Assembly (NCBI GenBank): GCA_963817685.1
Contig: CAWFPN010000003.1
Coordinates: 401,772 to 465,771, forward strand
From: an uncultured Verrucomicrobiae bacterium
Lineage (GTDB): Bacteria > Verrucomicrobiota > Verrucomicrobiia > Palsa-1439
Reading direction: 5' to 3'
DNA: 64,000 bases
Shown: positions 8,874-27,026 of the stretch, piece by piece
Position numbering within the stretch: the first letter of the stretch is position 1
Layout: every line of letters begins with the position of its first letter
Notes under the pieces: generated by a model
The model's database searches: none
The model's input: the letters and a program-made list of their open reading frames with translations, nothing else
Told to the model about the DNA's origin: nothing
Translations under genes and position numbers: made by a program

Positions 8874-9791
8874 TTACCCTTGGAAGATACTATCCCGATG
8901 GTACCGCAGAAACTCTGGCGATGGTTCCGCCAGTTTTTCCGGCAGCCGGATGTTTGCACCTTCGTACTGAGCGAAGTTCTGTTCCAGCGCTGGCTGGGGA
9001 AAGTAATGCTTGAGTTGCTTGCTCAGCACAAGTCGGAGCTTCTCATCCAATGTAATCAACCCTGAATCGAACGCCGCGTCGTGGAGACACGACAAGCACA
9101 GGCCGTTGCGAGGGTCCACCCGCTCGTTTGGAAAATCGCGCCACGGCTTGATATGACTCGCCACCAGAAGGCGCGGAACAGAGATTCCTGTAATGCAGCA
9201 GCGAACACCGTAAGCGCTAAGGATGGCTTGCCGAAAGAATTGCTGCCCCCGGCGCACGCGCACAGTCGCCTTCGCTTCCGTTGGTCCCGCTGGTGGTCTT
9301 ACAACACGCACCTTATCACGCTGAAGGAAATCTACTTCGCGGCCTTCATCCTTCGTAAACAAATCATGAAGCAACTGCTCACTCTCCGGACCGAGCACGT
9401 TGATGTTTTCATGGAACTCCGACCAAAGCTTTGTGGCTTCCACAGACACACCCCAGAGCCCTTTTATTCCCCGGGCCTTCTGAATAGGGTCAAGCGCCGC
9501 AAAATTGCAGAGCTTCATGGCAAGACTGCTCGGCGTGCGCCCCATTCTCTTGGCCACGTCGATGATGATCGGGTTGCCGCGATGAAGCTGCCCGAATGGC
9601 AGCTTGCAGTAAAGATTCAACGCCATGAGCGAATGCTCTCGCGTCCATCTCACGCTCGGCGCTTTGGTCATGGGGTCATTGTGGGCGAAAGCAACTGATT
9701 TGCGAAGCAGGAAATTACACCTCGTCACTAAGGAGAAATCCAGATGCCTAAGAACATCCGAATCGAGCTTGATTCGAACGATCTTGGCCAA
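8874..9791 (-). CDS. HNH_2-family (PF13391-like) endonuclease, an orphan restriction-endonuclease-like protein.
   Basis: C-terminal ...RRGQQFFRQAILSAYGVRCCITGISVPRLLVASHIKPW...NGLCLSCLHDAAFDSGLITLDE matches the HNH_2 motif. The true start may be the internal M at 9671. No methyltransferase is adjacent. Confidence 0.6.
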   Translation of the reverse strand: MAKIVRIKLDSDVLRHLDFSLVTRCNFLLRKSVAFAHNDPMTKAPSVRWTREHSLMALNLYCKLPFGQLHRGNPIIIDVAKRMGRTPSSLAMKLCNFAALDPIQKARGIKGLWGVSVEATKLWSEFHENINVLGPESEQLLHDLFTKDEGREVDFLQRDKVRVVRPPAGPTEAKATVRVRRGQQFFRQAILSAYGVRCCITGISVPRLLVASHIKPWRDFPNERVDPRNGLCLSCLHDAAFDSGLITLDEKLRLVLSKQLKHYFPQPALEQNFAQYEGANIRLPEKLAEPSPEFLRYHRDSIFQG

Positions 9792-10326: not shown

Positions 10327-10349
10327 GATACATGGTAGTGCCATGTATC
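10327..10349. repeat. Hairpin repeat HP1 (GATACATGG-TAGTG-CCATGTATC) upstream of vsr.
   Basis: One of three copies of a ~45-bp unit AGGCRAYGATACATGGTAGTGCCATGTATCCnnnCnnnACRACAGAS. The others are at 10744-10766 and 10911-10933. Confidence 0.7.
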
Positions 10350-10385
10350 CCAGCCACACGACAGAGATTCTTCGATAAGCTCAGA

Positions 10386-10775
10386 ATGACATCGCTACAG
10401 AGCGGGAACAAGGAGACGGAAGTTGCGCTGGCGGGGTTGATGCGCAGGAATGGGATTACGGGGTGGCGCAGGAATCAGCGGGTGATGGGGAAACCGGATT
10501 TTGTGTTTCGGCGGGAGCGGGTGGCGGTGTTTGTGGATGGGTGTTTCTGGCATGGGTGTCCGAAGCACGCAAACATGCCGGCGAATAATCGGGCATTTTG
10601 GAAAAAGAAGCTGACGGGGAACAAGCGCCGGGACAAGGTGGTGAATCGGGCGTTGCGCAAAGCCGGTTGGAAGGTCATTCGGATTTGGGAGCATGAGCTG
10701 GTGAAGAATCCCGACCGCTGCCTCCGCCGCATCCGCCAGGCGACGATACATGGTAGTGCCATGTATCCGCACTGA
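10386..10775 (+). CDS. vsr: Very-short-patch-repair (Vsr) T/G-mismatch nicking endonuclease, with no adjacent dcm.
   Basis: GKPDFVFRRERVAVFVDGCFWHGCP...FWKKKLTGNKRRDKVVNRALRKAGWKVIRIWEHEL aligns with E. coli Vsr (PDFVV...GCFWH...FW.EKI..N..RD......GW.V..IWE). The last 11 codons are encoded by hairpin repeat HP2. Confidence 0.8.
   Translation: MTSLQSGNKETEVALAGLMRRNGITGWRRNQRVMGKPDFVFRRERVAVFVDGCFWHGCPKHANMPANNRAFWKKKLTGNKRRDKVVNRALRKAGWKVIRIWEHELVKNPDRCLRRIRQATIHGSAMYPH
10744..10766. repeat. Hairpin repeat HP2 at the vsr 3' end.
   Basis: Identical 23-bp hairpin core to HP1 and HP3. Confidence 0.7.
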
Positions 10776-10989: not shown

Positions 10990-12235
<1,246 letters not shown>

Positions 12236-12411: not shown

Positions 12412-13831
12412 CTACTCCGTCTTCTTGCGGACGAACGTATGCGTGGGGTGGCCGTAGAAAACTTCGGCGGCTTCCATCATTGTTTCGGAGAGCGTCGGAT
12501 GGGGGTGGATGGATTCGGCGAGGTCTTTGGCGGTGGCGCCCATCTCGATGGCTAACACGCCTTCGGCAATAAGTTCGCCGGCGCCGTGGCCGACGATGCC
12601 GACGCCGAGGATGCGTTCGGTGTCGGGATCGATGATCAGCTTGGTCAGGCCGTCGGTGCGGTCGAAGGTCAGCGCGCGGCCGGAGGCGGTCCAGGGGAAT
12701 TTGGCGACCTGGATCGTGATACCCTTCTCTTTCGCCTCGGCCTCGGTCAGGCCGGCCCAGGCGATTTCGGGGTCGGTGAAAATGACGGCGGGGATGGTGA
12801 TGCTCTGGAATTCGCTCGGCTCGCCGCAGATCACTTCCACGGCCACGCGGGCTTCGCGCGCGGCCTTGTGGGCCAGCATCGCGCCACCGACGACGTCGCC
12901 GATGGCCATGATGGACGGGTCGGACGTTTCCTGCCGGTTATTGGCCTTGATGAACCCGCGGTCGTCGCGGGCGACCTTGGTGTTTTCCAGGCCGAGATCG
13001 TTGCAATTGGGCACGCGGCCGACGGAGACCAGGACGCGGTCGTAAAATTCCTCCTTGGTCTGGCCGCCGGCGTCGAAGATGACCTTGATCTGTTTGCCGT
13101 GCGTGGCCATCTTCGAGACCTTGGTGTTCACGCGCACTTCCTTGAACGCCTTCTCGGCGTACTTCATCACCGGTCGCGCCAGATCGGGATCGGCGCCGGC
13201 CAGGATCGTCGGCAAGGCTTCCACCACCACCACTTTGCTGCCCAGCGTCGCGTAGACCGTCCCCAATTCCATGCCGATGTAGCCGCCGCCGACGATCAAC
13301 AGGTTTTCGGGAATGTCGGGGATCTCCAGCGCTTCGCGCGAGGTCATGATGCGCGGGTTGCCAAGGTCGAATGACTTCGGCATGGCCGATTGCGAGCCGA
13401 CGGCGATGATGGCCTTGTCGTACTTCAAAAATTTCTGGCCATCCGCCGTCTCGACGCGCAACGTCTGCGAATCCTCGAAGTAGCCGCGCCCGTGCATCAC
13501 CTCGACGCCGCGCGTTTTGGCCAACGCGCCCACGCCGCCGGAAAGTTTTTCGAGGATCGAGTTTTTCCAGGAACGCAGTTTGTCCAGGTCGATCTTGCGG
13601 TTCGCCGAAGGTGATGCCGCGATGGGCCGACTCGCGCGCTTCGCCGATCAATTCCGTCGCGTGCAGCAGGGCCTTCGAAGGGATGCAGCCGCGATTCAGG
13701 CAAACGCCGCCGAGCCTTGCGTCCTGCTCGACAAGAATGACTTTCTTCCCGAGGTCCGCCGCATAAAACGCCGCCGCGTACCCGCCGGGCCCCGCGCCCA
13801 ACACCACCACATCGGTCTTGATTGCATCCAT
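12412..13831 (-). CDS. lpd: Dihydrolipoyl dehydrogenase (E3, Lpd), with an apparent +1 frameshift near 13597-13600.
   Basis: N-terminal frame [18 protein letters not shown]...[18 protein letters not shown]...GITFGEP, then the frame is lost. Removing one C from CCGCAAG restores ...[46 protein letters not shown]... continuous with the 373-aa C-terminal ORF (12412..13533). The full length aligns with E. coli Lpd. Confidence 0.8.
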
Positions 13832-13841
13832 GTTCGTCTCG

Positions 13842-15110
13842 CTAAATCTTCACGTCCGCTTCGTTGAAATTCTCAAACTCCTTCACAAGGTCCACGATGA
13901 ACCGCGCGGCGTTGGCGCCGTCGGCCACGCGGTGGTCGTAGGACAATCCCAGCGGCAGCACCAGGCGCGGCTCGATCTTACCGTCGCGCACCACGGCTTT
14001 CGTCGCGCCGCGGGCCATGCCGAGGATGGCCACTTCGGGCTTGTTGACGATGGGGGTGAACGCCCCGCCGCCGATGCCGCCCTGGTTGGAAATGGTGAAC
14101 GAGCCGCCTTTCATTTCCTCGGCAGAAACCTTGCGGTCGCGGGTCTTGGCGGAGAGTTCTTCCAGTTCCTTGGAAAGCTGCAGCACGCTCTTCTTGTCCA
14201 CGTCGCGAATCACCGGCACCATCAATCCGTGCTCGGTATCGACGGCGATGCCGATGTGGTAATACTCCTTGAACACGATTTCCTGCGCCGCTTCGTCGAG
14301 GCTGGCGTTGAACAGCGGATGCTTCTTCAACGCCGCCACCACCGCTTTCAAGGCCAGCGGCGTCAGCGTCAGGCGCGTGCCCTTGGCCTCGTAGGCTTTG
14401 GCGTATTTCTTCCGCAAGTCGTTAAGCGCCGTGATGTCGGCCTCGTCGAACTGCGTCACACGCGGGACCGTGTTCCACGATTCGCCCATGCGCCGGGCGA
14501 TGGTCTGTCGCAACGGCGTGAGCGGTTTCTTGTAAATAGATCCCCACTGCGAGAAATCAATCCGCTCCGCAACGGGTTTCTTCGGTTCCGCCGGAGCGCC
14601 TGCCGGCTGGGCCGATTGTTGCTGGAGTTGCTCGATGTAAGCGCGCACGTCGTCCAGCGTAATGCGTCCGCCGTTCTCCGTGCCCTGCACGCGCGTCAAA
14701 TCGATGCCCAGATCGCGCGCCATTTTGCGCACGGAGGGCGATGCGGGCGGCGGAAAGCCGGGAACCTCTTTGTAACCGGTCGCACCTGCCGGCACACCGG
14801 CTGGAGCGGGCACCGGTTTGGCGGCAGTGGCGCGCGGCGCGGTCCCGGCGCGGGCAGGCGGCGCAGCGGCTTCGACGCCGTCGGAGGCCAGGGACAAAAT
14901 GACCTGGCCGGCGGAAATCTTGTCGCCGACCTTGACGCGGATGGCGGTGACCGTGCCGGCGGCGCTGGACGGAATGCTGCCGACGGCCTTCTCGGTTTCC
15001 AGTTCGAGGACCGTCTGGTCCTTCTGGATCCGATCGCCTTCCTTGACCAAAATATTCACGACTGTACCCGAGTCCGCGCCTTCGCCCAGACTCGGAAGCC
15101 TAATGTCCAT
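13842..15110 (-). CDS. aceF: Dihydrolipoyllysine-residue acetyltransferase, E2 component of the pyruvate/2-oxoacid dehydrogenase complex.
   Basis: [26 protein letters not shown]... lipoyl domain, a Pro/Ala-rich linker, a peripheral subunit-binding domain ([12 protein letters not shown]) and a catalytic domain (...[18 protein letters not shown]). The start is chosen at the internal M (15110), with a lipoyl domain matching E2 N-termini. Confidence 0.85.
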
Positions 15111-15267
15111 TGCCTTCAGCCTTTCAAAAATACGGTGGTCGTCATCAGGGACTTGAGACCGCATTTTTATCCTGCGCAGACAAATAACACAAGCGCCGAG
15201 AAATGCAATGGCGGTGCGTGCGGCGATGATAGGAACGCCTTGGAAATGCGACTTGAGCGTACTTTTT

Positions 15268-16665
15268 CTACTTCTTTGCTTCCCTTTTCGCTAACTCGCT
15301 CAACAACTTCTCTACCCGATTGGATCCATCAGGAATACCGACCTTGTCATATAGCGCCTTCGCCTTCGTCCAATACTCCTTTACGATGTCCAACTGCCCA
15401 CGCGTTCGGTAAATCAGCCCCAAATTGTTGTACTGGTTGGCCATGCCTTCTTGGTTGCCCAGCCGCTCGTCAATTTCGAGCGCCTTGCGATGCATCTGCT
15501 CGGCCTCGTCCAACTTCCCGCGCGACTGGAAAATCAACCCCAGATTGCCATAGTCCTCGGCCATGCCTTGTTGGTTGCCGAGCCGCTCGTAAATCTCCAG
15601 CGCCTTGCGATACATCTGCTCGGCCTCGTCCAACTTCCCGCGCGACTGGAAAACCAACCCCAGATTGCTGTAGTCCTCGGCCACGCCTTCTTGGTCGCCG
15701 AGCCGCTCGTCGATTTCCAGCGCCTTGCGATGCATCTGCTCGGCTTCGGCCAACTGCCCGCGTGACTTGTAAATCAGCCCGAGATTGCCGTAGACCGCAG
15801 CCGCCCATTCTTCCTGATGCATCGATTCCGCAATCTCCAGAACCCGACGAAAATTGACCTCAGCTTGGGCGAGGCGTCCGACTCGGTACAGAAATAGCCC
15901 GTATGCGTTGATTGCAGCGGGGGAGTCGCCACGGACTGTAGCTTGGGCGAATCTTGTCTCCGCTTCCGTCAGTTTACCCGCTTGTGCAAGCTTCTTGGCC
16001 TCGTCCAGCAACTCTGTGATGCGAGGTTCTTCTGTCTTGCCTGGAGGCGGTGAGAGTGGAAACGACACTGGGACGGCAGGTTCTGGCGGGGGCCCTGCAG
16101 GGCTCCCTTTGACAGTTCCACCTCCTTCGTGATCCCGCAACCACTGACCGAGGTAGCGGCGCAGCCAATTTTCAAACTCCTCAGTTTGATCAAAGGTATG
16201 GAACAAGAGACTGTGCTCGGATTCTAACGTCTGTTTGAAAGTCAGCACCTTCTTCAGTTGATCGCCCGGATCGGTCAGTTGACGCGGATCGACGGACTTG
16301 AAGAAGACCACAATCTGACGCATTGGGCGATTCTGATCACGCATGCATTCCAGTGCTATATGGTATTCTTCCTCTGTGCCCGACGTGAATCTTCCCGTTC
16401 CGGAAGCATCGGGGGGAGACCCCCATCGATCCCACAACATCAGGACGAAAAAATCGCATTTTCGAATGTCCTCATTTATGAGCGATTGTGGACGCCCGAT
16501 ACCGCCAAGGGTGATTTCCCATCCCACTGGAATAAAATGCGCGACGCGATGGATTGCCTCGCATTCGTTGTAATCGCTGATGACCTTGCGAAACGCTTTT
16601 CGTTGCTCCTGCAAGCCCCCTGGCGTGGCAATGAAGATGCGATAACCTGTCAGTTTCTCCGACAT
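15268..16665 (-). CDS. DUF4062-like (TIR/nucleoside-2-deoxyribosyltransferase-like) N-terminal domain fused to a TPR repeat array. Candidate sensor-effector protein inserted between aceE and aceF.
   Basis: N-terminal YRIFIATPGGLQEQRKAFRKVISDYNE...HFIPVGWEI...IRKCDFFVLMLWDRWGS resembles DUF4062/TIR-like domains. A Pro-rich linker follows. The C-terminus holds 5-6 near-identical 42-aa TPR units (...YGNLGLIYKSRGQLAEAEQMHRKALEIDERLGDQEGVAED...). Confidence 0.6.
   Translation of the reverse strand: MSEKLTGYRIFIATPGGLQEQRKAFRKVISDYNECEAIHRVAHFIPVGWEITLGGIGRPQSLINEDIRKCDFFVLMLWDRWGSPPDASGTGRFTSGTEEEYHIALECMRDQNRPMRQIVVFFKSVDPRQLTDPGDQLKKVLTFKQTLESEHSLLFHTFDQTEEFENWLRRYLGQWLRDHEGGGTVKGSPAGPPPEPAVPVSFPLSPPPGKTEEPRITELLDEAKKLAQAGKLTEAETRFAQATVRGDSPAAINAYGLFLYRVGRLAQAEVNFRRVLEIAESMHQEEWAAAVYGNLGLIYKSRGQLAEAEQMHRKALEIDERLGDQEGVAEDYSNLGLVFQSRGKLDEAEQMYRKALEIYERLGNQQGMAEDYGNLGLIFQSRGKLDEAEQMHRKALEIDERLGNQEGMANQYNNLGLIYRTRGQLDIVKEYWTKAKALYDKVGIPDGSNRVEKLLSELAKREAKK
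15400..15900. repeat. Tandem 126-bp nucleotide repeats encoding the TPR array (about 4 near-identical copies).
   Basis: The ORF track shows the same reading frames repeating on both strands (15451..15765 and 15470..15808), with motifs recurring at a 126-bp period. Confidence 0.7.
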
Positions 16666-16744
16666 ACCCCCATGCTACGAACTAACCCGTCTTAGGGCAA
16701 GGCAGGATATGTCACCGAAGGGCTCACTAAGCGGGGCTATGTCA

Positions 16745-19327
16745 TCACACGCAGACCGGGAACACCTTCTCCGGGTCGACGCCCAGATCTTTGATGGCTT
16801 GGGCAACCACTTCCTTGCCGAGCTGGCCTTTTTCGGCGAGGGCGTAGAGGGTGGCGATGACGGTGCATTCGGCGTCGACTTCGAAGAAGCGGCGCAGGGC
16901 CGGGCGCGTGTCGCTGCGGCCGAAACCGTCGGTGCCGAGGGTGGTCAGGCCGCCGGGTATCCAGGGGGCGATCTGGTCGGAGACGATCTTCATGTTGTCG
17001 GACACGGCGATGAACGGGCCGGGCTGGCCTTCGACGACGGTTTCCAGATAGCTCTTCTTGGGCGGCTCGGTCGGGTGAAGCATGTTCCAGCGTTTACAGG
17101 CCTGGGCTTCGGTGCGGAGTTGTTTGTAATTGGTGGCGCTCCAGACGTCGGCGGACACGTCGTAGCGTTCCGCGAGGATTTCCTGGGCGCGCAAGGCTTC
17201 GCGGATGATTGTGCCGCTGCCGAAAATCTGGGCCTTGTGCTTCTTGGCGTCCGGGCCGGGCTTGAATTTATAGAGACCCTTGAGGATGCCCTGCTCCGCG
17301 CCTTCGGGCATGGGCGGCATGGCATACATCTCGTTGTGCACGGCCAGGTAATAAAAAATGTCTTCGCCTTCCTGGAACATCCGCCGCATGCCGTCCTGGA
17401 CGATCACGGCGATTTCGTACGTGAAGGCGGGTTCGTAGGCCAGCAGGGTCGGCACCACGCTGGTCAGCAACAGGCTGTGACCGTCCTCGTGCTGGAGGCC
17501 TTCGCCGTTGAGCGTCGTCCGGCCGGCGGTCGCGCCGAGCAGGAAACCTTTGGCCTTGATGTCGCCCGCCAGCCACCACAGATCGCCGATGCGCTGGAAA
17601 CCGAACATGGAATAATAAATGTAGAATGGGATCGTGTAGAACCCGTGCGTGGCGTAGGCTGTGGCCGCCGCCAGCCAGGAACACATCGCGCCCGTCTCGG
17701 TGATCCCCTCTTCGAGGATCTGGCCGTCCTTGGTCTCGTGGTAATACGACAAGGTGCTGCGGTCGACCGGTTCGTAGAGTTGCCCTTTGGGCGCGTAAAT
17801 CCCCACTTCCCTGAACAGCGTGTCCATGCCGAACGTCCGCGCCTCATCGGGGATGATCGGCACAACGCGCCGGCCCAGGTCCTTGTTGCGCAAGATCTGG
17901 GTGACAAACCGCACGAACCCCATCGTGGTGGACATTTCCATCTTGCCCGAGCCCTTGAGCATGTCGGAAAACGTCTCGAGCTTGGGAACCTCGATCGGCT
18001 TGGCCTTGACCGTGCGTTTGGGCAGCGAACCGCCGAGTTTCTTGCGGCGTTCCAGCAGATATTTCGTCTCCTCGCTGTCGGGTGGCGGCCGGTAAAAGGG
18101 CGTCTCGGCGATTTCCTCGTCGCTGATCGGGATGCCGAACCGGGCGCGGAACTCGCGGAGTTCCTTTTCGTTCATCTTCTTCTGCTGGTGCGTGATGTTG
18201 CGGCCTTCACCCGCTTCGCCGAGGCCGTAGCCTTTGATTGTCTTGGCCAGAATCACGGTCGGCTGGCCCTTGTGTTCCACGGCCGCTTTGTAGGCCGCGT
18301 ACACTTTTTGCGGATCGTGGCCGCCGCGTTTGAGCGCGTGGATCTGGTCGTCACTGAGCGAGTTGACCATCTCGAGCAACTCGGGATATTTGCCGAAGAA
18401 ATTCTTGCGGGTGTAACTGCCGGGCTCGACGGAATATTTCTGGTACTCGCCGTCCACCGCTTCGGTCATCCGCTTGACCAGCAGTCCCTGATCGTCATTG
18501 GCCAGCAACGGGTCCCAGTCCGAGCCCCAAATCACCTTGATCGCGTTCCAGCCCGCGCCGAGGAAGGCGGCTTCCAATTCCTGGATGATCTTGCCGTTGC
18601 CGCGCACCGGGCCGTCGAGCCGTTGCAGGTTGCAGTTGACGACCCAGATGAGATTGTCCAATTGCTCGCGCGAGGCCAGCGTCAACGCCCCGAGCGTTTC
18701 CGGTTCGTCGATTTCGCCGTCGCCGACGAAACACCAGAGCTTCGATTCCTCGCCGGTGAGAAACCCGCGCGCGCGCAGGTAACGGTTGAACCGCGCCTGG
18801 TAGATCGACATCACCGGGCCCAGTCCCATCGAGACGGTGGGGAATTGCCAGAAGTTCGGCATCAAATACGGATGCGGATAGGACGACAGCCCGCCGCCTT
18901 CGGCCAGTTCCTGGCGGAAATGCTGGAGATGCTGGTTCTCGAACCGGCCTTCGAGATACGCGCGGGCGTAGATGCCCGGCGAAGCGTGTCCCTGGAAATA
19001 AACGATATCGGCCGGCCGCTCGCCGTCGCCGCCCCGGAAGAAATGGTTGAACCCGACTTCGTAGAGCGTGGCGGCGGAGGCGTAGGTGGAGATGTGGCCG
19101 CCCAGGCCGTTGTGGAGGCGGTTGGCATTGACCACCATGGCCATGGCGTTCCAGCGGATGAGGCTCTTGATCCGCCGTTCCAGCTCGCGGTTGCCGGGGT
19201 ATTCCGGCTCCTCGTCGGCGGGGATGGTATTGACGTAGGGCGTGTTCAGCGGGTTGGCCGGCTGCGCGCCCAGCGGCTGTTTATGTTTCAACTGTTCCTT
19301 TAGATTCAGATTCACATTGACCCTCAA
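16745..19327 (-). CDS. aceE: Pyruvate dehydrogenase E1 component, homodimeric type.
   Basis: 860 aa. ...YVNTIPADEEPEYPGNRELERRIKSLIRWNAMAMV... aligns with E. coli AceE ([31 protein letters not shown]). Confidence 0.9.
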   Translation of the reverse strand: MRVNVNLNLKEQLKHKQPLGAQPANPLNTPYVNTIPADEEPEYPGNRELERRIKSLIRWNAMAMVVNANRLHNGLGGHISTYASAATLYEVGFNHFFRGGDGERPADIVYFQGHASPGIYARAYLEGRFENQHLQHFRQELAEGGGLSSYPHPYLMPNFWQFPTVSMGLGPVMSIYQARFNRYLRARGFLTGEESKLWCFVGDGEIDEPETLGALTLASREQLDNLIWVVNCNLQRLDGPVRGNGKIIQELEAAFLGAGWNAIKVIWGSDWDPLLANDDQGLLVKRMTEAVDGEYQKYSVEPGSYTRKNFFGKYPELLEMVNSLSDDQIHALKRGGHDPQKVYAAYKAAVEHKGQPTVILAKTIKGYGLGEAGEGRNITHQQKKMNEKELREFRARFGIPISDEEIAETPFYRPPPDSEETKYLLERRKKLGGSLPKRTVKAKPIEVPKLETFSDMLKGSGKMEMSTTMGFVRFVTQILRNKDLGRRVVPIIPDEARTFGMDTLFREVGIYAPKGQLYEPVDRSTLSYYHETKDGQILEEGITETGAMCSWLAAATAYATHGFYTIPFYIYYSMFGFQRIGDLWWLAGDIKAKGFLLGATAGRTTLNGEGLQHEDGHSLLLTSVVPTLLAYEPAFTYEIAVIVQDGMRRMFQEGEDIFYYLAVHNEMYAMPPMPEGAEQGILKGLYKFKPGPDAKKHKAQIFGSGTIIREALRAQEILAERYDVSADVWSATNYKQLRTEAQACKRWNMLHPTEPPKKSYLETVVEGQPGPFIAVSDNMKIVSDQIAPWIPGGLTTLGTDGFGRSDTRPALRRFFEVDAECTVIATLYALAEKGQLGKEVVAQAIKDLGVDPEKVFPVCV

Positions 19328-19378: not shown

Positions 19379-20098
19379 ATGAACTTCTTGGACCTGACCC
19401 TGCCGACGCCGCAGGAGAACCTCGCCTGTGACGAAGCGCTGCTCGATGGATGCGAGCAGGGCCGCCACGGTGAAATTCTCCGGTTTTGGGAGTCGGCCAC
19501 GCCTTTTGTCGTGCTGGGATATTCTAACAAAACCCGGACGGAAGTGAACCTCGATTCCGCGCGGCGCGCCGGGGTGCTCGTGTTGCGGCGTTGCACCGGC
19601 GGCGGCGCGGTCTTGCAGGGCGCGGGCAGCCTGAATTATTCGTTGATCCTGAAGATCCCCGAAACCGGCCCGCTGAGCGGCATCACTTCGACGAACGCGG
19701 AGATCATGGACCGCCACAAGGACGCGCTCGCGCCAATCGCGGGCGGCCCGATTGTGGTGCAGGGCCACAGCGACCTGGCGCGGGGTGAATTGAAGTTCTC
19801 CGGCAACGCCCAGCGGCGGCGGCGGCGTTGCCTGTTGTTTCACGGCACGATCCTGCTTGGCTCGGACATTGAATTGATGGAACGCCTGCTGCCGATGCCG
19901 TCGCGCCAGCCCGATTACCGTCACAACCGTCCGCACCGCGATTTTCTAACGAACCTTGACGTCCCCGCGCGCGCGATCAAGCAAGCGCTGCAAGCGGCGT
20001 GGGGAGCGACCGAACCCTGCGGCGACGTCCCCGTCAAAGAAATCGCCTCGCTGGCCCGGTCGTCATACTCCCGCGACGAGTGGAACTTCAAGTTCTAA
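19379..20098 (+). CDS. Lipoate-protein ligase / octanoyltransferase family protein (BPL/LPL catalytic domain).
   Basis: MNFLDLTLPTPQENLACDEALL...RRCTGGGAVLQ...KFSGNAQRR. Typical LplA/LipB-family motifs. Divergent from aceE. Confidence 0.7.
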   Translation: MNFLDLTLPTPQENLACDEALLDGCEQGRHGEILRFWESATPFVVLGYSNKTRTEVNLDSARRAGVLVLRRCTGGGAVLQGAGSLNYSLILKIPETGPLSGITSTNAEIMDRHKDALAPIAGGPIVVQGHSDLARGELKFSGNAQRRRRRCLLFHGTILLGSDIELMERLLPMPSRQPDYRHNRPHRDFLTNLDVPARAIKQALQAAWGATEPCGDVPVKEIASLARSSYSRDEWNFKF

Positions 20099-20146
20099 CC
20101 TGCGCCCCTCAACCCTAGTAATTTCATTGCTTCCAGGGCGGTTCTC

Positions 20147-20157
20147 TGGTACAATAT
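20147..20157 (+). promoter_or_regulatory. Putative extended -10 promoter element (TGGTACAATAT) of beta-propeller paralog 1.
   Basis: TGnTAcAAT-like extended -10 element. The same element and a conserved ~65-nt leader ending ...GGGAGATCAATGG occur upstream of all three paralogs (also at 22264-22274 and 24935-24945). Confidence 0.4.
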
Positions 20158-20213
20158 GCAAATTCGTCGCGAAGCGAAATACACGCGGGTTGGGTGGCGG
20201 CGAAGGGAGATCA

Positions 20214-22238
20214 ATGGGCTTGGCTGGCTGCCGGTATAGTGGAGAAACAGTGCGCACTGTGTCGCGACGATTCGTCACGGCGGCGGCCATCATTTTACCC
20301 CTGATTCTCCTGCTGCTGTTGCCGTCGCGCGTCGCGGCGGTGAATGTATTGACGCAGCACAACAACAATTGCCGCACCGGCGCCAACCTCAACGAGTACG
20401 TCCTGACCACTTCCAACGTGAACACCGGCCAGTTCGGCAAGCTGTTCACACGGGCCGTGGACGGCGCGATCTATGCCCAGCCGTTGTACGTCCACAACCT
20501 GACGATTTCCAACAAGACGCGCAACGTCATCTACGCCTGCACCGAGCACGACAGCGTCTACGCCTTCGATGCGGACGATCCCGCCGCCTCCAACGCGCTC
20601 TGGCAGGTAAGCCTCGGCCCATCGGTTCCCATCTCCAACCTGAACGGCTGCGGCGATCTTCCGCCCGAGGTCGGCATCACCGGCACGCCCGTAATCGATC
20701 CGGCAAGCAACACTCTGTACGTTGAAGCCAAGACCCTGGAATCCGGCAACTTCCTCCACCGGTTGCACGCGCTGGACCTGATCACGGGCCAGGAAAAATT
20801 CGGCGCGCCGGTCGTGATCCAGGGCACGGTATCCGGCACAGGCGACGGCAGCAACACCGTCACGTTCAGCGGCCAGCATCAATTCAACCGCCCGGGCCTG
20901 TTGTTGCTGAGCAACGTCGTCTACATCGCCTTCGGGTCACACTGCGACTGGGCGCCGTATCACGGCTGGCTGTTTGGCTACAACGCCGGCAACGTCCAGC
21001 AGCAGGCCGGTGTTTTCTGCACGACTCCCAATGGCGGAGAAGCCGGGATCTGGTCGTCCGGCATGGGACCGGCGGCCGACAGCAACGGCAACATCTACGT
21101 CATGACCGGCAACGGCACGTTCGACGCGCCCAATGGGAGCGATTATGGGAATTCGTTCATCAAGCTCAGCGCATCCAACGGGACGCTGGCTGTGGCCGAT
21201 TGGTTCGCGCCTCACGACGAGCAGTCGCTGAGCGATGCGGACCAGGACGTCGGCGGCGGCGGGCCGGTGCTGATGCCGGGCACGAATCTCCTTGTGGGTG
21301 TTGACAAGATCGGCAGGATGTACGTGATCAACCGAAGCCATTTTGGCGGCATCGTCCCGACCACCGACACCAACATCGTGCAGGAGTTTCAGGCCGTGGC
21401 CGGCGGCCCTGGTGTCGGACAAAGCCCCGTCTTCTGGAGCGGACCGACGAACCAGCTTGTGTTCACCTGGACCACCAGCGACGTGCTCAAGGCGTACCAG
21501 TTCAATGGATCCACCTTCCAAACCACGCCGGCGGCCCAGGGCACTGTCTACCAGGGCCGCGCCGGCGGGACCTCCCTGTCGGCCAACAGAAACGCCGCCG
21601 GCAGCGCCATTGTTTGGGGCATTGAGGGCCAGAACAACGGCGGGGAACTGCATGCTTACAGCGCCATCAATATTTCCAACGAACTCTGGAACAGCCAGCA
21701 AAACGCCGCCCGCGATTCCCTCGGCAACTACGCCAAATTCTGCGCGCCCACCATCGTCAACGGGAAAGTCTACGCGCCCACGACCGCCAGCCAGTTGGCC
21801 GTCTACGGTCTGCTCGGTACGCCCTATCACCTCTGGCAGCAGCAAAACTTCTCGAGCGCCCAATTGACCAATGCCGCCGTCAGCGGTGACACCGCCAGCC
21901 CAGCCGGCGACGGTATCCCCAACCTTATGAAATACGCCTTCAACCTCAAACCGTTTGTCCCCGGCGCCGCCGGCCTGCCTGTGGCCGGCCTGCAAACGGT
22001 CGGCGGCACCAATTATCTGTCGATCACCTTCAACCGAGTCCTGTTTGCCACGGACGTTTCCTACACCGTGCAGGTTTCCGGCGACTTGATTACCTGGAAC
22101 TCAGGGCCGGTTTACACAGCCCCCGCCGGCACGCCCATTGACAACGGCGACGGCACCGAGACGGTCACCGTCCAGGACATTGTCCCCGTCACCGCCGCCG
22201 GCGCCAGATTTATCCGGGTCCAAATCAACGGCCCCTAA
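20214..22238 (+). CDS. Tat-signal secreted beta-propeller protein (PQQ-like repeat family), paralog 1, with a ~130-aa C-terminal domain.
   Basis: RBS GAAGGGAGA. Twin-arginine-like signal MGLAGCRYSGETVRTVSRRFVTAAAIILPLILLLLLPSRVAA. Propeller blades carry A.DA..G..LW-like motifs (VYAFDADDPAASNALWQV; HALDLITGQEKFG; ELHAYSAINISNELWNS). Confidence 0.65.
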   Translation: MGLAGCRYSGETVRTVSRRFVTAAAIILPLILLLLLPSRVAAVNVLTQHNNNCRTGANLNEYVLTTSNVNTGQFGKLFTRAVDGAIYAQPLYVHNLTISNKTRNVIYACTEHDSVYAFDADDPAASNALWQVSLGPSVPISNLNGCGDLPPEVGITGTPVIDPASNTLYVEAKTLESGNFLHRLHALDLITGQEKFGAPVVIQGTVSGTGDGSNTVTFSGQHQFNRPGLLLLSNVVYIAFGSHCDWAPYHGWLFGYNAGNVQQQAGVFCTTPNGGEAGIWSSGMGPAADSNGNIYVMTGNGTFDAPNGSDYGNSFIKLSASNGTLAVADWFAPHDEQSLSDADQDVGGGGPVLMPGTNLLVGVDKIGRMYVINRSHFGGIVPTTDTNIVQEFQAVAGGPGVGQSPVFWSGPTNQLVFTWTTSDVLKAYQFNGSTFQTTPAAQGTVYQGRAGGTSLSANRNAAGSAIVWGIEGQNNGGELHAYSAINISNELWNSQQNAARDSLGNYAKFCAPTIVNGKVYAPTTASQLAVYGLLGTPYHLWQQQNFSSAQLTNAAVSGDTASPAGDGIPNLMKYAFNLKPFVPGAAGLPVAGLQTVGGTNYLSITFNRVLFATDVSYTVQVSGDLITWNSGPVYTAPAGTPIDNGDGTETVTVQDIVPVTAAGARFIRVQINGP

Positions 22239-22263
22239 ACAGATTGTGGAAACAGTGTTTTTG

Positions 22264-22274
22264 TGGTACAAGAT
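22264..22274 (+). promoter_or_regulatory. Putative extended -10 promoter element of paralog 2 (TGGTACAAGAT).
   Basis: Conserved position relative to the start codon across all three paralogs. Confidence 0.35.
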
Positions 22275-22329
22275 ATGCGCTTCGCCATGAGGCGAATTCA
22301 GCCCTGACGGGTCAGGGTGAGGGAGATCA

Positions 22330-24891
22330 ATGGCCATGACCGGCTGCCATTACACGCGGCAAATAGTGCGTCATCTGTCACGGCGATTCATCGCCTTGGC
22401 GGTCGCGGCTTTTCCGCTGACTGTCCTTCTGTTGTCGCCATCGGGCGCCGCGGCGGTCGATGTGTGGACGCAGCACAACGACAATTTTCGCACGGGCGCC
22501 AATCTCAACGAGTTCACGCTGACCACCTCCAATGTGAACACGGGCCAATTCGGCAAACTGTTCGCGCGCGCGGTGGACGGCCAGATCTATGCCCAACCGC
22601 TGTACGTCCACAGCCTGACGATTTCCAACAGGACGCGCAACGTCATCTACGTCTGCACCGAGCACAACAGCGTGTTCGCCTTCGATGCCGACGATCCCGC
22701 CGCCTCCAACGCTCTCTGGCAGGTGAACGTCGGCCCGTCGGTTTCCTACACCGACGTGGACAGTTGCACGGACCTTGCTCCCGAGATCGGCATCACCTCC
22801 ACGCCGGTCATCGATCTTGTCAACAACACCATCTTCGTCAGCGCCAAGACCAAGGAATCAGGCAACTTCTTCTACCGGCTCCACGCGCTGGACCTGCTTA
22901 GCGGCCAGGAGAAATACGGCGGGCCCGTGCTGATCCAAGCCAGCGCGCCCGGCTCGGGCGACGGCAGCGTCGGCGGGACCAACACCTTCAATGCCTTGCA
23001 CCAGTTGAATCGCCCCGGGTTGCTGTTGTTGAGCAACGTGGTCTACCTGGCCTTCGGCTCGCACTGCGACTGGACGCCGTATCACGGCTGGCTGCTGGGC
23101 TATAACGCGACCAACCTGCAGCAGGTCAGCACGCTGAACACGACTCCCAATGGCAACGACGGCGCGATCTGGTCATGCGGCATGGGACCGGCGGTCGACC
23201 CCGCGGGCAACATTTACGTCATGACCGGCAACGGCACGTTCGATGCGACCAACGGCGTCGATTTCGGGCAATCGTTCCTCAAACTCAGCACGTCGAACGG
23301 GCCGCCGGTCATCGTCGATTCGTTCACGCCCCACGACGCGGCGACGCTGAACCTGACCGACCTGGACATTGGCACGGGCGGGCCGGTGCTGATGCCGGGC
23401 ACAAACATTCTGGTGGGCCTGGCCAAGACCGGCGCGATGTACGTGCTCAACGAGAACCATCTGGGCAACTTCGTCACCTCCTCCGACACCAACACCGTGC
23501 AGGTGTTCCAGCCCGTGCCGCCCGCGGATTGCATCGGACAGTGTCCCGTTTACTGGAACGGGCCGACCAACCAGTTCCTGTTCCTCTGGACCGGCGGCGA
23601 CGTGCTGCGGGCCCTCAAGTTCAACGGAGCCACCTTCCAAACCACGCCGCTGGCCACCAATACCGTGGCGCAGAACGACCCCGGCGGCGGGCTTTCTCTG
23701 TCGGCCAACGGCAATGCGACCGGGACCGCCGTTCTCTGGGGCACCTGGGGCACGCCCGGCGCCGCCGATGGCGCGTTGTACGCCTATGATGCCGGCAACG
23801 TCGCGCATGAACTCTGGGACAGCAGCCTGATCGGGCGCGATGCGCTGGGCAGTCTGGCGAAGTTTTGCGCGCCGACAATCGCCAACGGCAAAGTCTATGT
23901 CGCCACCGCCTCGGGCAATCTCGTCGTGTACGGTCTGTTGCCATCGCCGCCGCAATTCCAGGTCACCGGGATCTCCCTGTCCAACAATGACGTGATGCTG
24001 GCCTGGACCGCGTTTGGCGCGACAACCAATTACGTCCAGGCCACCGCCGGCGACGGCGGCGGTTACTCCACCAATTTCACCACCATCAGCCCGCCCATCG
24101 GCATCCCCGGCACCGGCCCGACCGCCACCAATTACATCGACGCGGGCGGGGCAACCAATCAGCCCGCCCGCTACTATCGCGTGTCGATGGTCGGCCCGCT
24201 GGCCATCGACAATGCGGCCGATCCGGCCTACAGCGGAGGCTGGCCCGGCGGCAGCAACGGCGGCCGGGGGTATGGGCCGTGGACGTTGACGGCCTCCAGT
24301 CCGATTCAAGGCGCGGGCAACGGGTTCTTCATCGGGTTCTCAACGAACAACGGCGGTTTCGCCTCGCCGGGCATCGACGTCAACGGCAAATCATGGGGCA
24401 TCTACGCCAACAACAACAATTACACCGCGGCGTACCGGCCGTTTCTCAGCCCGGTGCCGGTGGGCGGCACGTTGCGCGTCGACATGGACAACGGGTACAT
24501 CAGTTCCAACAGCGCGGTCGGTTTTGTGCTGCGCAACGGCAATGCTGCCGCGAGCTACACCAACTACAACACAGGTTCGCGGCTGGAGTTCCTCTACATC
24601 GGCTATGCCCCCACCAACAGTTACCAGGTGGTCGACGCCGCCGCGCGCCATGCGATCGGCGTTCCGTTCACGACCACGGGCCTGCGGCTGTACTTCACGC
24701 TGGGAACCAACGACACCTACACCCTGACGGTCGTGGACAACGCCACCAGCGCGACCGATGTGGTCTTGCATGGCACGCTGGCGGGGGCGACCAATAGCAC
24801 GCTCGACAGCATCGCTGTCTACAACCGCAATGCCGGCGACGGTCCCCCGTTTGACGCGTTCTTCAATTCCCTCCAAATCAACGGCCCGTAA
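22330..24891 (+). CDS. Tat-signal secreted beta-propeller protein, paralog 2, with a distinct ~300-aa C-terminal extension including an FN3-like module.
   Basis: MAMTGCHYTRQIVRHLSRRFIALAVAAFPLTVLLL... The propeller region is about 75% identical to paralogs 1 and 3. C-terminal ...GATNQPARYYRVSMVGP... and the gene ends ...SLQINGP. Confidence 0.65.
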   Translation: MAMTGCHYTRQIVRHLSRRFIALAVAAFPLTVLLLSPSGAAAVDVWTQHNDNFRTGANLNEFTLTTSNVNTGQFGKLFARAVDGQIYAQPLYVHSLTISNRTRNVIYVCTEHNSVFAFDADDPAASNALWQVNVGPSVSYTDVDSCTDLAPEIGITSTPVIDLVNNTIFVSAKTKESGNFFYRLHALDLLSGQEKYGGPVLIQASAPGSGDGSVGGTNTFNALHQLNRPGLLLLSNVVYLAFGSHCDWTPYHGWLLGYNATNLQQVSTLNTTPNGNDGAIWSCGMGPAVDPAGNIYVMTGNGTFDATNGVDFGQSFLKLSTSNGPPVIVDSFTPHDAATLNLTDLDIGTGGPVLMPGTNILVGLAKTGAMYVLNENHLGNFVTSSDTNTVQVFQPVPPADCIGQCPVYWNGPTNQFLFLWTGGDVLRALKFNGATFQTTPLATNTVAQNDPGGGLSLSANGNATGTAVLWGTWGTPGAADGALYAYDAGNVAHELWDSSLIGRDALGSLAKFCAPTIANGKVYVATASGNLVVYGLLPSPPQFQVTGISLSNNDVMLAWTAFGATTNYVQATAGDGGGYSTNFTTISPPIGIPGTGPTATNYIDAGGATNQPARYYRVSMVGPLAIDNAADPAYSGGWPGGSNGGRGYGPWTLTASSPIQGAGNGFFIGFSTNNGGFASPGIDVNGKSWGIYANNNNYTAAYRPFLSPVPVGGTLRVDMDNGYISSNSAVGFVLRNGNAAASYTNYNTGSRLEFLYIGYAPTNSYQVVDAAARHAIGVPFTTTGLRLYFTLGTNDTYTLTVVDNATSATDVVLHGTLAGATNSTLDSIAVYNRNAGDGPPFDAFFNSLQINGP

Positions 24892-24934
24892 GGCAAACGC
24901 GCGAGGTCGCGTGGTTGTGGCCGCGTGGTTTCTG

Positions 24935-24945
24935 TGGTACAAATG
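24935..24945 (+). promoter_or_regulatory. Putative extended -10 promoter element of paralog 3 (TGGTACAAATG).
   Basis: Conserved leader as for paralogs 1 and 2. Confidence 0.35.
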
Positions 24946-25001
24946 ATTCACCTCGCCGCCAGGCGAATACACGCCCGTGGGTCTCGGAGCAGGGAAGATC
25001 A

Positions 25002-27026
25002 ATGGCCATGGCCGGCAGCCGTAACATGCGGGAAACAGCGCGTTATCCGTCACGGCGGTCCGTCGCCGCCGTGGTTGTTTTGTTGTTGTCGGCCGTTCTC
25101 CTGTTGTGGCCGTCACGCGGGGCGGCGGTGAATGTGTTGACGCAGCACAACGACAATTTCCGCACGGGCGCCAACCTCAACGAGTACGTGCTGACCACCT
25201 CCAACGTGAACACGGGCCAGTTCGGCAAACTGTTCGCGCGCCCCGTGGACGGCCAGATCTTCGCGCAGCCGCTCTATGTCCACAACGTGACCATCTCCAA
25301 CCAGACCCGCAACGTCATCTACGTCTGCACCGAGAGCAACAGCGTCTACGCCTTTGACGCCGATCATCCAGCCGCGTCCAACGCGCTGTGGCGGACCGGC
25401 CTGGGCGCCCCGGTCCCCGCGTCCGCCGTGGGGGGTTGCCCCTTCATCAGCCCCGAGATCGGCATCACGTCCACGCCCGTGATCAATCCGTCCAATAACA
25501 CCCTCTACGTCGAAACCAAGACCGTGCAGGGCACGAACTATGTCCAAAGCCTGCACGCACTGGACATCACCACCGGCCTGGAGAAGTTCGGCGGGCCCGT
25601 CGTCATCCAGGGGTCCGTACCGGGCACGGGCGACGGAGGCACGACGGTCGTCTTCAACGCCTTCACCCAGGTCAATCGCCCGGGACTGCTGCTGTTGAGC
25701 AACGTCGTCTACGTCGCCTTCGGATCGCACTGCGACTTCTACCAGTATCACGGCTGGTTGTTCGGCTACAACGCGACGAACCTCCAACAGGTCGCCATTT
25801 ACAATACCACGCCCAACGGCAGCGAGGGCGCGATCTGGTCCTGCGGCATGGGACCGGCCGCCGACAGCAACGGCAACATTTACGTGATGACCGGCAACGG
25901 CACGTTCGACAAGAACACCGGCGGCCCTGATCTGGGCGATTCCTTCATCAAGTTCAGCACGTCCAACGGCACGCTGGCCGTCGCCGACTGGTTCACCCCG
26001 TACAACCAGGGCACGCTCGACTCGCAGGACCTGGATCTCGGCTCGGGCGGGGCGGTGGTTCTGCCCGGCACGAGTTTCCTCGTCGGCGTCGGCAAGACAG
26101 GCCCGATGTACCTGCTCAACGAGGACCATCTCGGCGGGTTCTCCAGCGCAGGCAGCGACACCAATGTCGCCGAGGAATTCATGGCCGGTGTGTCCACCTG
26201 CTGCATTGGGCAAAACCCGGTTTACTGGAACGGGCCGGCCAATCAATTCATCTTCCAGTGGAGCGGCGATATCCCGCTCAAGGCCTTTTCGTTCAATGGC
26301 TCCTCGATCCAGAGCAATGCGGTGGCCACCGGCGCCACGACGCAAAGTTCCAGCACGGGCGGGACGTCGCTCTCGGCGAAAGGAAACACCGCCGGCAGCG
26401 GCATCGTTTGGGGCACCGAGTCCGGCAACGGCGGCACGCTGCACGCCTACGACGCCACCAACGTGGCCGACGAACTTTGGAACAGCCAGCAAAACGCCGC
26501 CCGGGACGCGCTGTCCTCGTTCGTGAAGTTCTGCGCGCCCACCATTGTGAACGGAAAGGTCTACGTCGCCACCTCGAACCAACTCGTCGTGTACACTTTG
26601 CTCGCTGCCCCCTACCAGCTCTGGCGGCAGCAAAACTTCTCCAGCGCCCAACTGACCAATGCCACTGTCAGCGGCGATACCGCCAGCCCCGCCGGCGACG
26701 GCATCGCCAATCTCACCAAATACGCCTTCAACCTCAAACCGTTTGTCCCTGTCACCGGCGGCCTGCCCGTGGACAGTCTGCAAACGATCGGCGGCACCCA
26801 CTATCTATCGATCACCTTCAACCAAGTCCTCTTCGCCACGGACATTTCCTACATCGTCCAGGTCTCCGGCGACATGGCCACCTGGAACTCAGGGCCCGGT
26901 TACACGGCCCCTGTCGGTACGCCCATCGACAATGGCGACGGCACCGAGACGGTCACCGTCCAGGATGTTGTCCCCGTCAGCGCCGCCAACTCCAGGTTCA
27001 TCCGGGTCCAAATCAACGGCCCCTAA
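25002..27026 (+). CDS. Tat-signal secreted beta-propeller protein, paralog 3. Its C-terminal domain is nearly identical to that of paralog 1.
   Basis: MAMAGSRNMRETARYPSRRSVAAVVVLLLSAVLLLWPSRGAA... C-terminus ...DGIANLTKYAFNLKPFVPVTGGLPVDSLQTIGGTHYLSITFNQVLFATDISYIVQVSGDMATWNSGP...ANSRFIRVQINGP. Confidence 0.65.
   Translation: MAMAGSRNMRETARYPSRRSVAAVVVLLLSAVLLLWPSRGAAVNVLTQHNDNFRTGANLNEYVLTTSNVNTGQFGKLFARPVDGQIFAQPLYVHNVTISNQTRNVIYVCTESNSVYAFDADHPAASNALWRTGLGAPVPASAVGGCPFISPEIGITSTPVINPSNNTLYVETKTVQGTNYVQSLHALDITTGLEKFGGPVVIQGSVPGTGDGGTTVVFNAFTQVNRPGLLLLSNVVYVAFGSHCDFYQYHGWLFGYNATNLQQVAIYNTTPNGSEGAIWSCGMGPAADSNGNIYVMTGNGTFDKNTGGPDLGDSFIKFSTSNGTLAVADWFTPYNQGTLDSQDLDLGSGGAVVLPGTSFLVGVGKTGPMYLLNEDHLGGFSSAGSDTNVAEEFMAGVSTCCIGQNPVYWNGPANQFIFQWSGDIPLKAFSFNGSSIQSNAVATGATTQSSSTGGTSLSAKGNTAGSGIVWGTESGNGGTLHAYDATNVADELWNSQQNAARDALSSFVKFCAPTIVNGKVYVATSNQLVVYTLLAAPYQLWRQQNFSSAQLTNATVSGDTASPAGDGIANLTKYAFNLKPFVPVTGGLPVDSLQTIGGTHYLSITFNQVLFATDISYIVQVSGDMATWNSGPGYTAPVGTPIDNGDGTETVTVQDVVPVSAANSRFIRVQINGP

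Follow-up and report, generated by a model that had tools for sequence, protein, structure and literature searches.

A stretch of DNA of 64,000 nucleotides (nt) from an uncultured Verrucomicrobiae bacterium (contig CAWFPN010000003.1), referred to here as the window and the source of all coordinates, carries a gene for a protein of 465 amino acids (aa) between aceE and aceF, the genes for the E1 and E2 components of pyruvate dehydrogenase (PDH). This gene, at positions 15268 to 16665 and termed X below, is a lineage-specific, compositionally foreign insertion in the short aceE-aceF spacer. Its product represents a widespread, unnamed architecture, and not a new kind of system, in which a TIR-like NIR (DUF4062) domain is joined directly to an array of tetratricopeptide repeats (TPRs). 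By analogy with characterised relatives, we consider it reasonably probable that X is a horizontally acquired single-protein sensor-effector whose NIR domain acts as an NAD+ hydrolase (NADase) in a defence triggered by a protein of the invader. The best explanation for its place among the PDH genes is that the insertion is tolerated there and would be transcribed by read-through, without any functional link to PDH.

A NIR domain joined to a TPR array

A preliminary description of this DNA had reported a 465-aa open reading frame (ORF) that separates aceE from aceF and shares their orientation, and the ORF proved to be intact. Its parts are listed below; pLDDT denotes the predicted local distance difference test score of the AlphaFold2 model.

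15268 to 16665, minus strand: X, intact ORF from ATG to stop, 465 aa (ORF list and translation; Pfam DUF4062 and TPR_12)
16120 to 16665, minus strand: NIR/DUF4062 TIR-like domain, residues 1-182
First half of the NIR domain: betaA 6-13, alphaA 19-40, betaB 42-47, BB loop 48-59, alphaB 60-68
Second half of the NIR domain: betaC 72-77, alphaC 96-109, betaD 117-123, alphaD 135-150, betaE 154-158, alphaE 161-180
16363 to 16377, minus strand: predicted catalytic motif T97-E98-E99-E100-Y101 at the N-terminus of alphaC (homologue conservation)
16030 to 16119, minus strand: proline-rich disordered linker, residues 183-212 (pLDDT below 50 at 187-211, no Pfam match)
15271 to 16029, minus strand: TPR array, residues 213-465, with 13 helices forming six TPR motifs and a C-terminal capping helix (Pfam, AlphaFold2)
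15388 to 15802, minus strand: three tandem 120-nt (40-aa) DNA repeats in the TPR array (repeat search and comparison of units)

The first 130 or so residues had been assigned to DUF4062. This assignment stood, but the domain is longer than had been thought. The Pfam model PF13271 matched residues 9-104 with 32.4 bits when the whole protein was searched and scored 36.4 bits against the N-terminus alone, in both cases above the gathering score of 24.7. The full-length AlphaFold2 model (pLDDT 88.6) is composed of an alpha/beta domain at residues 1-180, the linker and 13 helices at residues 213-464, and the fold of the N-terminal domain thus extends to about residue 180. This extent agrees with the remark of Osinski et al. 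(bioRxiv 10.64898/2026.05.01.722283) that the Pfam DUF4062 model misses about half of the domain. The five parallel strands flanked by helices that define a TIR-like alpha/beta fold are present in the model. The likeness to canonical TIR domains is at the level of the fold only, and none of the Pfam models for TIR (PF01582), TIR_2 (PF13676) and SEFIR matched X at E ≤ 1. The strongest library match to the N-terminal domain was to the PADLOC candidate PDC-S60 (residues 8-178, E 9e-20), on which we found no literature; the similarity is confined to the first ~169 positions of that profile, the remaining ~740 of its 906 positions being without a match. A single-sequence phmmer search of the PDB with X gave no match. 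NCBIfam holds no model for the N-terminal domain, and for this reason public records name such proteins "tetratricopeptide repeat protein".

Conservation was measured in two alignments, one of 40 N-terminal domains and one of 50 full-length homologues. E99 and E100 were invariant in both, E98 was at least 90% conserved in both, and F11 was also nearly invariant. W49, R58, D71 and W81-G82 were invariant in the 40 N-terminal domains and at least 90% conserved among the 50 full-length homologues. Among 177,635 PDB sequences, the only match of a profile of the X clade was to the Swarozyc protein KpSwz (10wc; E 0.74, N-terminal domain only). When the X clade was compared by hhalign with a KpSwz-type alignment, built starting from the PDB 10wc fragment, the two were matched with 97.1% probability (E 6e-11) over 122 columns at ~23% identity, and the segment SGTEEEY of X was set against SYTEKE[FY] of the KpSwz-like proteins. 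Given the 14-residue offset of the 15-C construct, the invariant E83 of the KpSwz-like alignment appears to correspond to the published catalytic residue E97. We therefore predict from the alignment that E100 is the catalytic glutamate of X, because the TEEEY motif aligns with the catalytic Glu motif of KpSwz and lies at the N-terminus of alphaC. The pair E100-Y101 also fits the E-Y motif reported for another relative, Eva01 (E87-Y88). Three features (the match in sequence, the TIR-like fold and the conserved Glu motif) were thus found in X, and on this sequence-derived evidence X belongs to the NIR/DUF4062 domain family.

The preliminary description had also noted a TPR array with no intervening NTPase, and both Pfam and the AlphaFold2 model bear this out. 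No NTPase model matched X at E ≤ 1, and Pfam revealed neither a P-loop nor any other domain in the linker at residues 183-212, whose median identity to its homologues is 13%. The array that follows gives a Pfam signal at about residues 215-445, scoring 172 bits (E 2e-51) with TPR_12 and 70 bits with TPR_MalT, and the TPR_NPHP3 model reaches 101.3 bits against a gathering score of 100. The array is thus of the KLC/NPHP3-type TPR_12 kind, and its helices at residues 213-464 are modelled with pLDDT values mostly above 90.

The three 120-nt units share 82-86% identity with the reference copy, and two of them, which encode residues 327-366 and 367-406, have 92% DNA identity to one another. When only units spaced by strictly 40 aa are counted, X has 3 and each of 50 homologues has between 0 and 7; X, at 465 aa, is short for its family. 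Across 208 TPR units from 50 proteins the scaffold positions were nearly invariant, and variability was focused at positions 4, 5, 11, 14, 15, 21, 24 and 33. This pattern, read from sequence, is suggestive of a binding surface on a consensus-like scaffold that evolves by duplication and loss of units, for which it is what would be expected.

A foreign gene in the PDH operon

Calling of the longest ORFs placed the PDH region on the wrong strand; the GC content of third codon positions (GC3) and Pfam matches were used in its place. X lies between the following genes and junctions.

16745 to 19327, minus strand: aceE (PDH E1), upstream of X (Pfam PDH_E1_M 312 bits, Transketolase_N, Transketolase_C_1)
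16666 to 16744, minus strand: upstream junction, a 79-nt spacer from the aceE stop to the X start (sequence)
15114 to 15267, minus strand: downstream junction, a 154-nt spacer of 49% GC from the X stop to the probable aceF start
13842 to 15164, minus strand: aceF (PDH E2), downstream of X (Pfam 2-oxoacid_dh 278 bits, Biotin_lipoyl, E3_binding)
12412 to 13831, minus strand: lpd, the PDH E3 gene, after aceF

The true start of aceF is probably M18, at position 15113, because the alignments of its relatives begin at residue 19. AceE is at most 77% identical to its homologues from Verrucomicrobiota metagenome-assembled genomes in the reference set that was searched, and the host is therefore a verrucomicrobium that has no closely related sequenced genome in that set. 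A protein identical to X is present in NCBI/ENA (P0121), on a contig of 924,685 bp, and the next best full-length match after it has only 51% identity.

We surveyed 80 related aceE loci, of which 56 have aceF after aceE. In these 56 loci the aceE-aceF spacer never exceeds 594 nt and its median length is 64 nt; the closest relatives have 15-134 nt, as compared with 1,631 nt here. The genes aceE and aceF are thus normally contiguous, as had been claimed. Neither a DUF4062 nor a TPR gene was found in the spacer of any of the 56 aceE-aceF pairs, and a homologue of X was found at none of the 80 aceE loci. X is therefore not a conserved fixture of PDH operons, one of the two findings that the preliminary description had named as speaking against its proposal; the other, a lack of similarity of the N-terminal domain to DUF4062 or TIR-like folds, is likewise contrary to what the Pfam match and the model described above display. 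The aceE-aceF-lpd order is common and not universal in the group, because 24 of the 80 loci (L008, L009, L013, L015-L018, L020-L022 and others) have no aceF in the available stretch, several of them with kilobases of sequence downstream.

X differs from its neighbours in composition. Its GC content is 0.55 and its GC3 0.64 (0.58 in the N-terminal domain), as compared with a GC3 of 0.80-0.86 for aceE, aceF and lpd (aceE 0.84, aceF 0.80), and its codon-usage distance of 0.188 is the largest of the genes compared, the others ranging from 0.05 to 0.14. No promoter-like or terminator-like sites were found between aceE, X and aceF, which makes read-through transcription of X from the operon plausible. 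The 79-nt upstream spacer showed no similarity to the flanks of homologues. No integrase belonging to X was found nearby, the IS110 and IS1595 transposases of the window being separate elements.

The three largest spacers among the relatives also hold inserted ORFs. One (L014, 10557-10949) contains a gene of the PDDEXK_3 nuclease family (146 bits), another (L010, 5549-5972) an Unstab_antitox-like ORF, whose 22 bits fall slightly short of the threshold, with a 68-aa ORF after it, and the third (L055, 10546-10848) a 100-aa ORF with no match. These observations suggest that the aceE-aceF spacer is a permissive, recurrent landing site for accessory genes. Because the accessory genes that occupy this spacer in relatives are unrelated to X, the spacer is better seen as permissive than as functional. 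It may even, although this is improbable, be an unnoticed hotspot in this verrucomicrobial lineage for small conflict genes that ride a housekeeping promoter, among them the NIR-TPR gene, a toxin-antitoxin-like pair and a PD-(D/E)xK gene.

Several other features of the window were recorded. The lpd gene is split by one extra base ("GAACCGcAAGATC") at 13590-13605, so that its first 79 codons lie in one frame and ~395 in another; relatives read G-x-P-K-I-D-L without interruption at this point, and the frameshift is either a real pseudogene of PDH E3 or an assembly indel. Upstream of aceE, the opposite strand carries a gene for a lipoate-protein ligase. Just past this gene, the region from 19956 to 27026 on the plus strand contains three large consecutive ORFs of 760, 853 and 703 aa with a host-like GC3 of 0.79-0.85, for which Pfam gave no match at E ≤ 1e-3. 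To the left of the PDH genes lie the following.

11262 to 12203, plus strand: IS110-family transposase, directly downstream of lpd
10332 to 10775, plus strand: Vsr mismatch endonuclease
8874 to 9791, minus strand: HNH endonuclease (PADLOC "HNH" PDLC04132, E 2e-91)
3156 to 4070, minus strand: IS1595-family transposase
2341 to 3159, minus strand: phage Rha/P63C regulatory protein, beside IS1595
1510 to 2088: TylF-like methyltransferase

No cognate methyltransferase was identified near the Vsr and HNH endonuclease genes, which lie 5-7 kb from X, and the stretch that they form with IS110, 3-7 kb from X, looks like a restriction-type remnant or island. The IS1595, Rha/P63C and TylF-like genes, in a low-GC stretch at the left end of the window, are further mobile DNA.

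Spread of the architecture and its relation to known systems

The fused arrangement of X is the prevailing one among its relatives. NIR and TPR regions occurred in one ORF in 72 of the 80 closest metagenomic relatives of the N-terminal domain (61 of them complete, at 386-821 aa); other forms among the 80 included one split and four short proteins. Nearly all of the top 120 full-length matches, of 420-800 aa and from many phyla, contain both PF13271 and TPR_12. A profile search of 1.84 billion cluster representatives, in which clusters are formed at 50% identity, returned 10,674 matches at E ≤ 1e-3, 5,739 at E ≤ 1e-10 and 1,220 at E ≤ 1e-30, and most of the top 150 were proteins of 400-636 aa that begin with the domain. 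A search with the N-terminal domain returned mostly proteins of 180-320 aa, which would suggest a stand-alone NIR family with separate partner genes. We rejected this since the fused form dominates; the excess of short proteins is largely due to listing bias or to fusions truncated at the ends of contigs.

Truly split versions of the module do exist. At one locus (L002, 8001-9977) a 241-aa NIR gene is followed by a 374-aa TPR_12 gene, at another (L001, 8001-11228) a 185-aa NIR gene is followed by a gene for an 870-aa protein that begins with TPRs, and a third (L158, 7989-8609) is also a true split form. In L003 the NIR-TPR gene is apparently truncated by insertion of an insertion sequence.

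The homologues stand alone, in neighbourhoods that are unrelated to one another: some lie near transposases or radical-SAM genes, others near GerE regulators, and others near histidine and tRNA-synthetase genes beside a PemK toxin. At 41 non-redundant metagenomic loci, with 145 flanking ORFs in all, even the commonest Pfam families (Ser/Thr kinases, other TPR proteins, ProRS and D12 methyltransferase) occurred only 3-5 times each. Because flanking ORFs and contexts vary in this way, the NIR-TPR clade has no conserved partner gene.

The preliminary description had tentatively proposed that the DUF4062 family serves as NADase or nucleotide-processing effectors, and three preprints of 2026 establish a NADase effector role for the family; for X it is extended by analogy. 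Osinski et al. described DUF4062 as a TIR-like NADase that yields ADP-ribose and nicotinamide, found that in Swarozyc the enzyme is activated through binding of the phage portal by the C-terminal AUX domain, and reported NADase activity for human TEP1. In the Evangelion systems, defined by Ibarra-Chavez et al. (bioRxiv 10.64898/2026.06.25.731849), one gene encodes both the DUF4062 core and an auxiliary region that has diversified. The name NIR was given to the domain by Le Mouellic et al. (bioRxiv 10.64898/2026.09.04.749371), who identified it as the effector of an Avs2 protein; in published structure-based trees NIR forms a family separate from canonical TIR. Le Mouellic et al. also described Vulcan, in which NIR is fused directly to HEAT repeats and is activated by a phage protein, the repeat region being implicated in the sensing of that protein that leads to NAD+ depletion, and Vesta, a small NIR protein with an alkaline phosphatase. 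The conserved glutamate is needed for defence in KpSwz (E97), PsAvs2 (E108), Vulcan (E98) and Vesta (E103), and Eva01 has the corresponding E87-Y88 motif with a putative catalytic Glu (Osinski et al.; Le Mouellic et al.; Ibarra-Chavez et al.). Accessions of these proteins are WP_202404386 (KpSwz), WP_273864396.1 (PsAvs2), WP_050009967.1 (Vulcan) and WP_274410426.1 (VstA). Most of the NIR systems assayed to date are from enterobacteria, pseudomonads or staphylococci.

By analogy, X may work most like Vulcan. Both have an N-terminal NIR domain fused directly to alpha-helical repeats, both are single genes without a STAND NTPase, and both carry the catalytic Glu, predicted in the case of X, near residue 100 (E98 in Vulcan, E100 in X). 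However, the repeats of Vulcan are HEAT repeats and those of X are of the TPR_12/KLC type, a comparison made by description and not by sequence, and no HEAT model in Pfam matches X, which sets it outside Vulcan as defined. KpSwz has a homologous NIR domain, the catalytic Glu of both proteins falling in the aligned motif TE[KE]E[FY], and is likewise a single protein, in which the trigger (the phage portal) is recognised by the C-terminal part, which thereby switches on the NADase; in contrast to X with its TPR array, it has a helical stalk and a dedicated AUX domain. X belongs to another clade than KpSwz, because their identity is only ~23% over 122 columns. Evangelion resembles X in joining, within one gene, a DUF4062 core to an auxiliary region that has diversified, and the motifs of Eva01 (an aromatic F11, E-Y and a W/E-containing motif) have counterparts in F11, E100-Y101 and W49-E50 of X. 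Its AUX regions, compared with X by description and not by sequence, are short and are not TPRs, and Evangelion shows enrichment on mobile elements, plasmids among them, in clinical bacteria.

The NIR-Avs2 protein PsAvs2 and the eukaryotic proteins TEP1, NWD1/2 and NPHP3 also combine an N-terminal NIR domain with C-terminal repeats, which in Avs2 and NPHP3 are TPRs, as in X. Unlike X, which has only a disordered linker of 30 residues at this point, these NLR-like proteins have a central STAND/NACHT NTPase that drives oligomerisation. Vesta is distinguished by its phosphatase: the neighbours of X are aceE and aceF, and no phosphatase is among the commonest neighbour families of its relatives. 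Canonical TIR NADases (SARM1, TIR-SAVED, TIR-STING and ThsB/ThsA) differ in that their TIR models do not match X. X is thus none of Swarozyc, Vulcan, Vesta and Avs/STAND, because it lacks one defining feature of each.

The preliminary description knew of no defence system with this architecture. The running text of the main articles on NIR/DUF4062 makes no mention of an NTPase-less NIR-TPR fusion, and no mention of TPRs was found in the Swarozyc supplement; the architecture is nevertheless common, with the 1,220 clusters reported above, and follows the same logic as Vulcan.

Proposed function and alternative explanations

Of the two functions put forward at the outset, a minimal sensor-effector immunity protein and a regulator of PDH, we favour the former and found no support for the latter. 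If X works as Vulcan, Swarozyc and Evangelion do, its NIR domain would be autoinhibited in the resting state. The TPR array would bind a protein or peptide of an invader, most likely a phage protein, and binding would relieve the autoinhibition or else cluster or rearrange the NIR domains into an active oligomer. E100-dependent hydrolysis of NAD+ would then arrest the infected cell. A single-gene module is supported by the predominance of fused ORFs, the lack of a conserved neighbour and the varied contexts, a sensor-like array by the near-identical tandem repeats, their changing number and the few variable unit positions, and an insertion by the absence from related loci, the foreign composition and the mobile and defence-type genes (IS110, Vsr and HNH) that lie 3-7 kb away.

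Several observations weigh against such a defensive NADase. The 145 flanking ORFs gave no clear defence-island signal, and their PADLOC matches, taken without a background comparison, were generic Ser/Thr kinases, with a few methyltransferases also present among these ORFs. For NIR genes overall, 20% versus 3.9% has been reported as the enrichment near defence systems. Only one marginal, partial match was found in 2.9 million viral contigs (IMG/VR). No target-site duplication, terminal inverted repeats or conserved flanks were found at X, and no insertion mechanism was found. Both the NADase activity and the defence are extrapolated from relatives with NIR domains only about 23% identical. Finally, the human DUF4062 proteins NWD1, NWD2 and NPHP3 showed no NADase activity, and the conserved fold and Glu are therefore no guarantee of catalysis.

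The main alternative is a role for X outside phage defence, whether as a stress- or signal-responsive NAD(P)+ hydrolase, as a scaffold with little or no catalysis, or as a selfish, toxin-like stabiliser of its locus. We regard this as rather unlikely, yet it retains real weight because of the missing defence-island signal and the inactive human proteins, whose inactivity stands beside the functional diversification of NIR domains on which Le Mouellic et al. speculate. The occurrence of homologues among housekeeping genes, the near absence of the clade from viral contigs, and the selfish-type genes (PDDEXK_3 and the antitoxin-like ORF) inserted independently in the same spacer of relatives point in the same direction. 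However, every bacterial NIR protein assayed, covering five architectures, defends by NAD+ depletion; the catalytic motif is invariant in the clade, which argues for catalysis; and X is patchily distributed, foreign in composition and dynamic in its repeats, as would fit an immune gene. The TIR-like fold and catalytic Glu are also common to signalling TIRs, and Le Mouellic et al. raise for some NIR domains the possibility that they generate an NAD+-derived second messenger, as ThsB of Thoeris does, for a separately encoded effector. For X this is improbable: the clade has no conserved partner gene at its flanks, and all characterised NIR domains give ADP-ribose and nicotinamide with bulk depletion of NAD+. 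In the assays of Osinski et al., TEP1-TIR was contrasted with SARM1, AbTIR and HopAM1, which were assayed alongside it with a cyclic ADP-ribose standard.

The location of X invites a link to PDH, either as regulation through local NAD+ or ADP-ribose or as sensing of PDH or pyruvate status by the TPR array. X stands between aceE and aceF in the same direction with no terminator-like site between them, and the E3 component of PDH is an NAD+-dependent enzyme. Nevertheless, X is absent from all 56 aceE-aceF and all 80 aceE loci of relatives, PDH genes adjoin none of the 89 homologue loci examined, and its composition is foreign, which together leave such a link very improbable. A related and scarcely more probable idea is that the insertion is not neutral and that a domesticated NIR-TPR protein links carbon and NAD+ metabolism to growth arrest, or regulates PDH through local NAD+ or ADP-ribose; if this were true, a co-transcribed, NAD+-destroying sensor would be coupled to the main NAD+-reducing entry point of the cell into the tricarboxylic acid cycle. 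Least credible of all is that the arrangement is an assembly artefact or that X is a decaying, functionless remnant. The source is probably a metagenome-assembled contig, and the 1-nt frameshift in the adjacent lpd points either to errors in the sequence or to decay of genes here. However, X is full-length with an intact catalytic motif and C-terminal cap and a confident model, the insertion is precisely intergenic with both flanking genes complete, and the identical protein lies on the contig of 924,685 bp.

If X is the defensive sensor-effector that we favour, its position means that a potentially toxic effector is tolerated in a core metabolic operon. The position is unusual, a curiosity, and by itself no sign of a new mechanism. 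X is a good candidate for a defence-system screen, conceptually incremental after the work of 2026, in which NIR was first shown to be a NADase common to bacterial immunity and human TEP1. It stands for a large branch, in environmental bacteria, that couples NIR directly, and without an NTPase, to TPRs of the KLC/NPHP3 type. Testing one NIR-TPR member would show whether the TPR array alone gates the NIR NADase and what it senses, and thousands of mis-described proteins could then be re-annotated.

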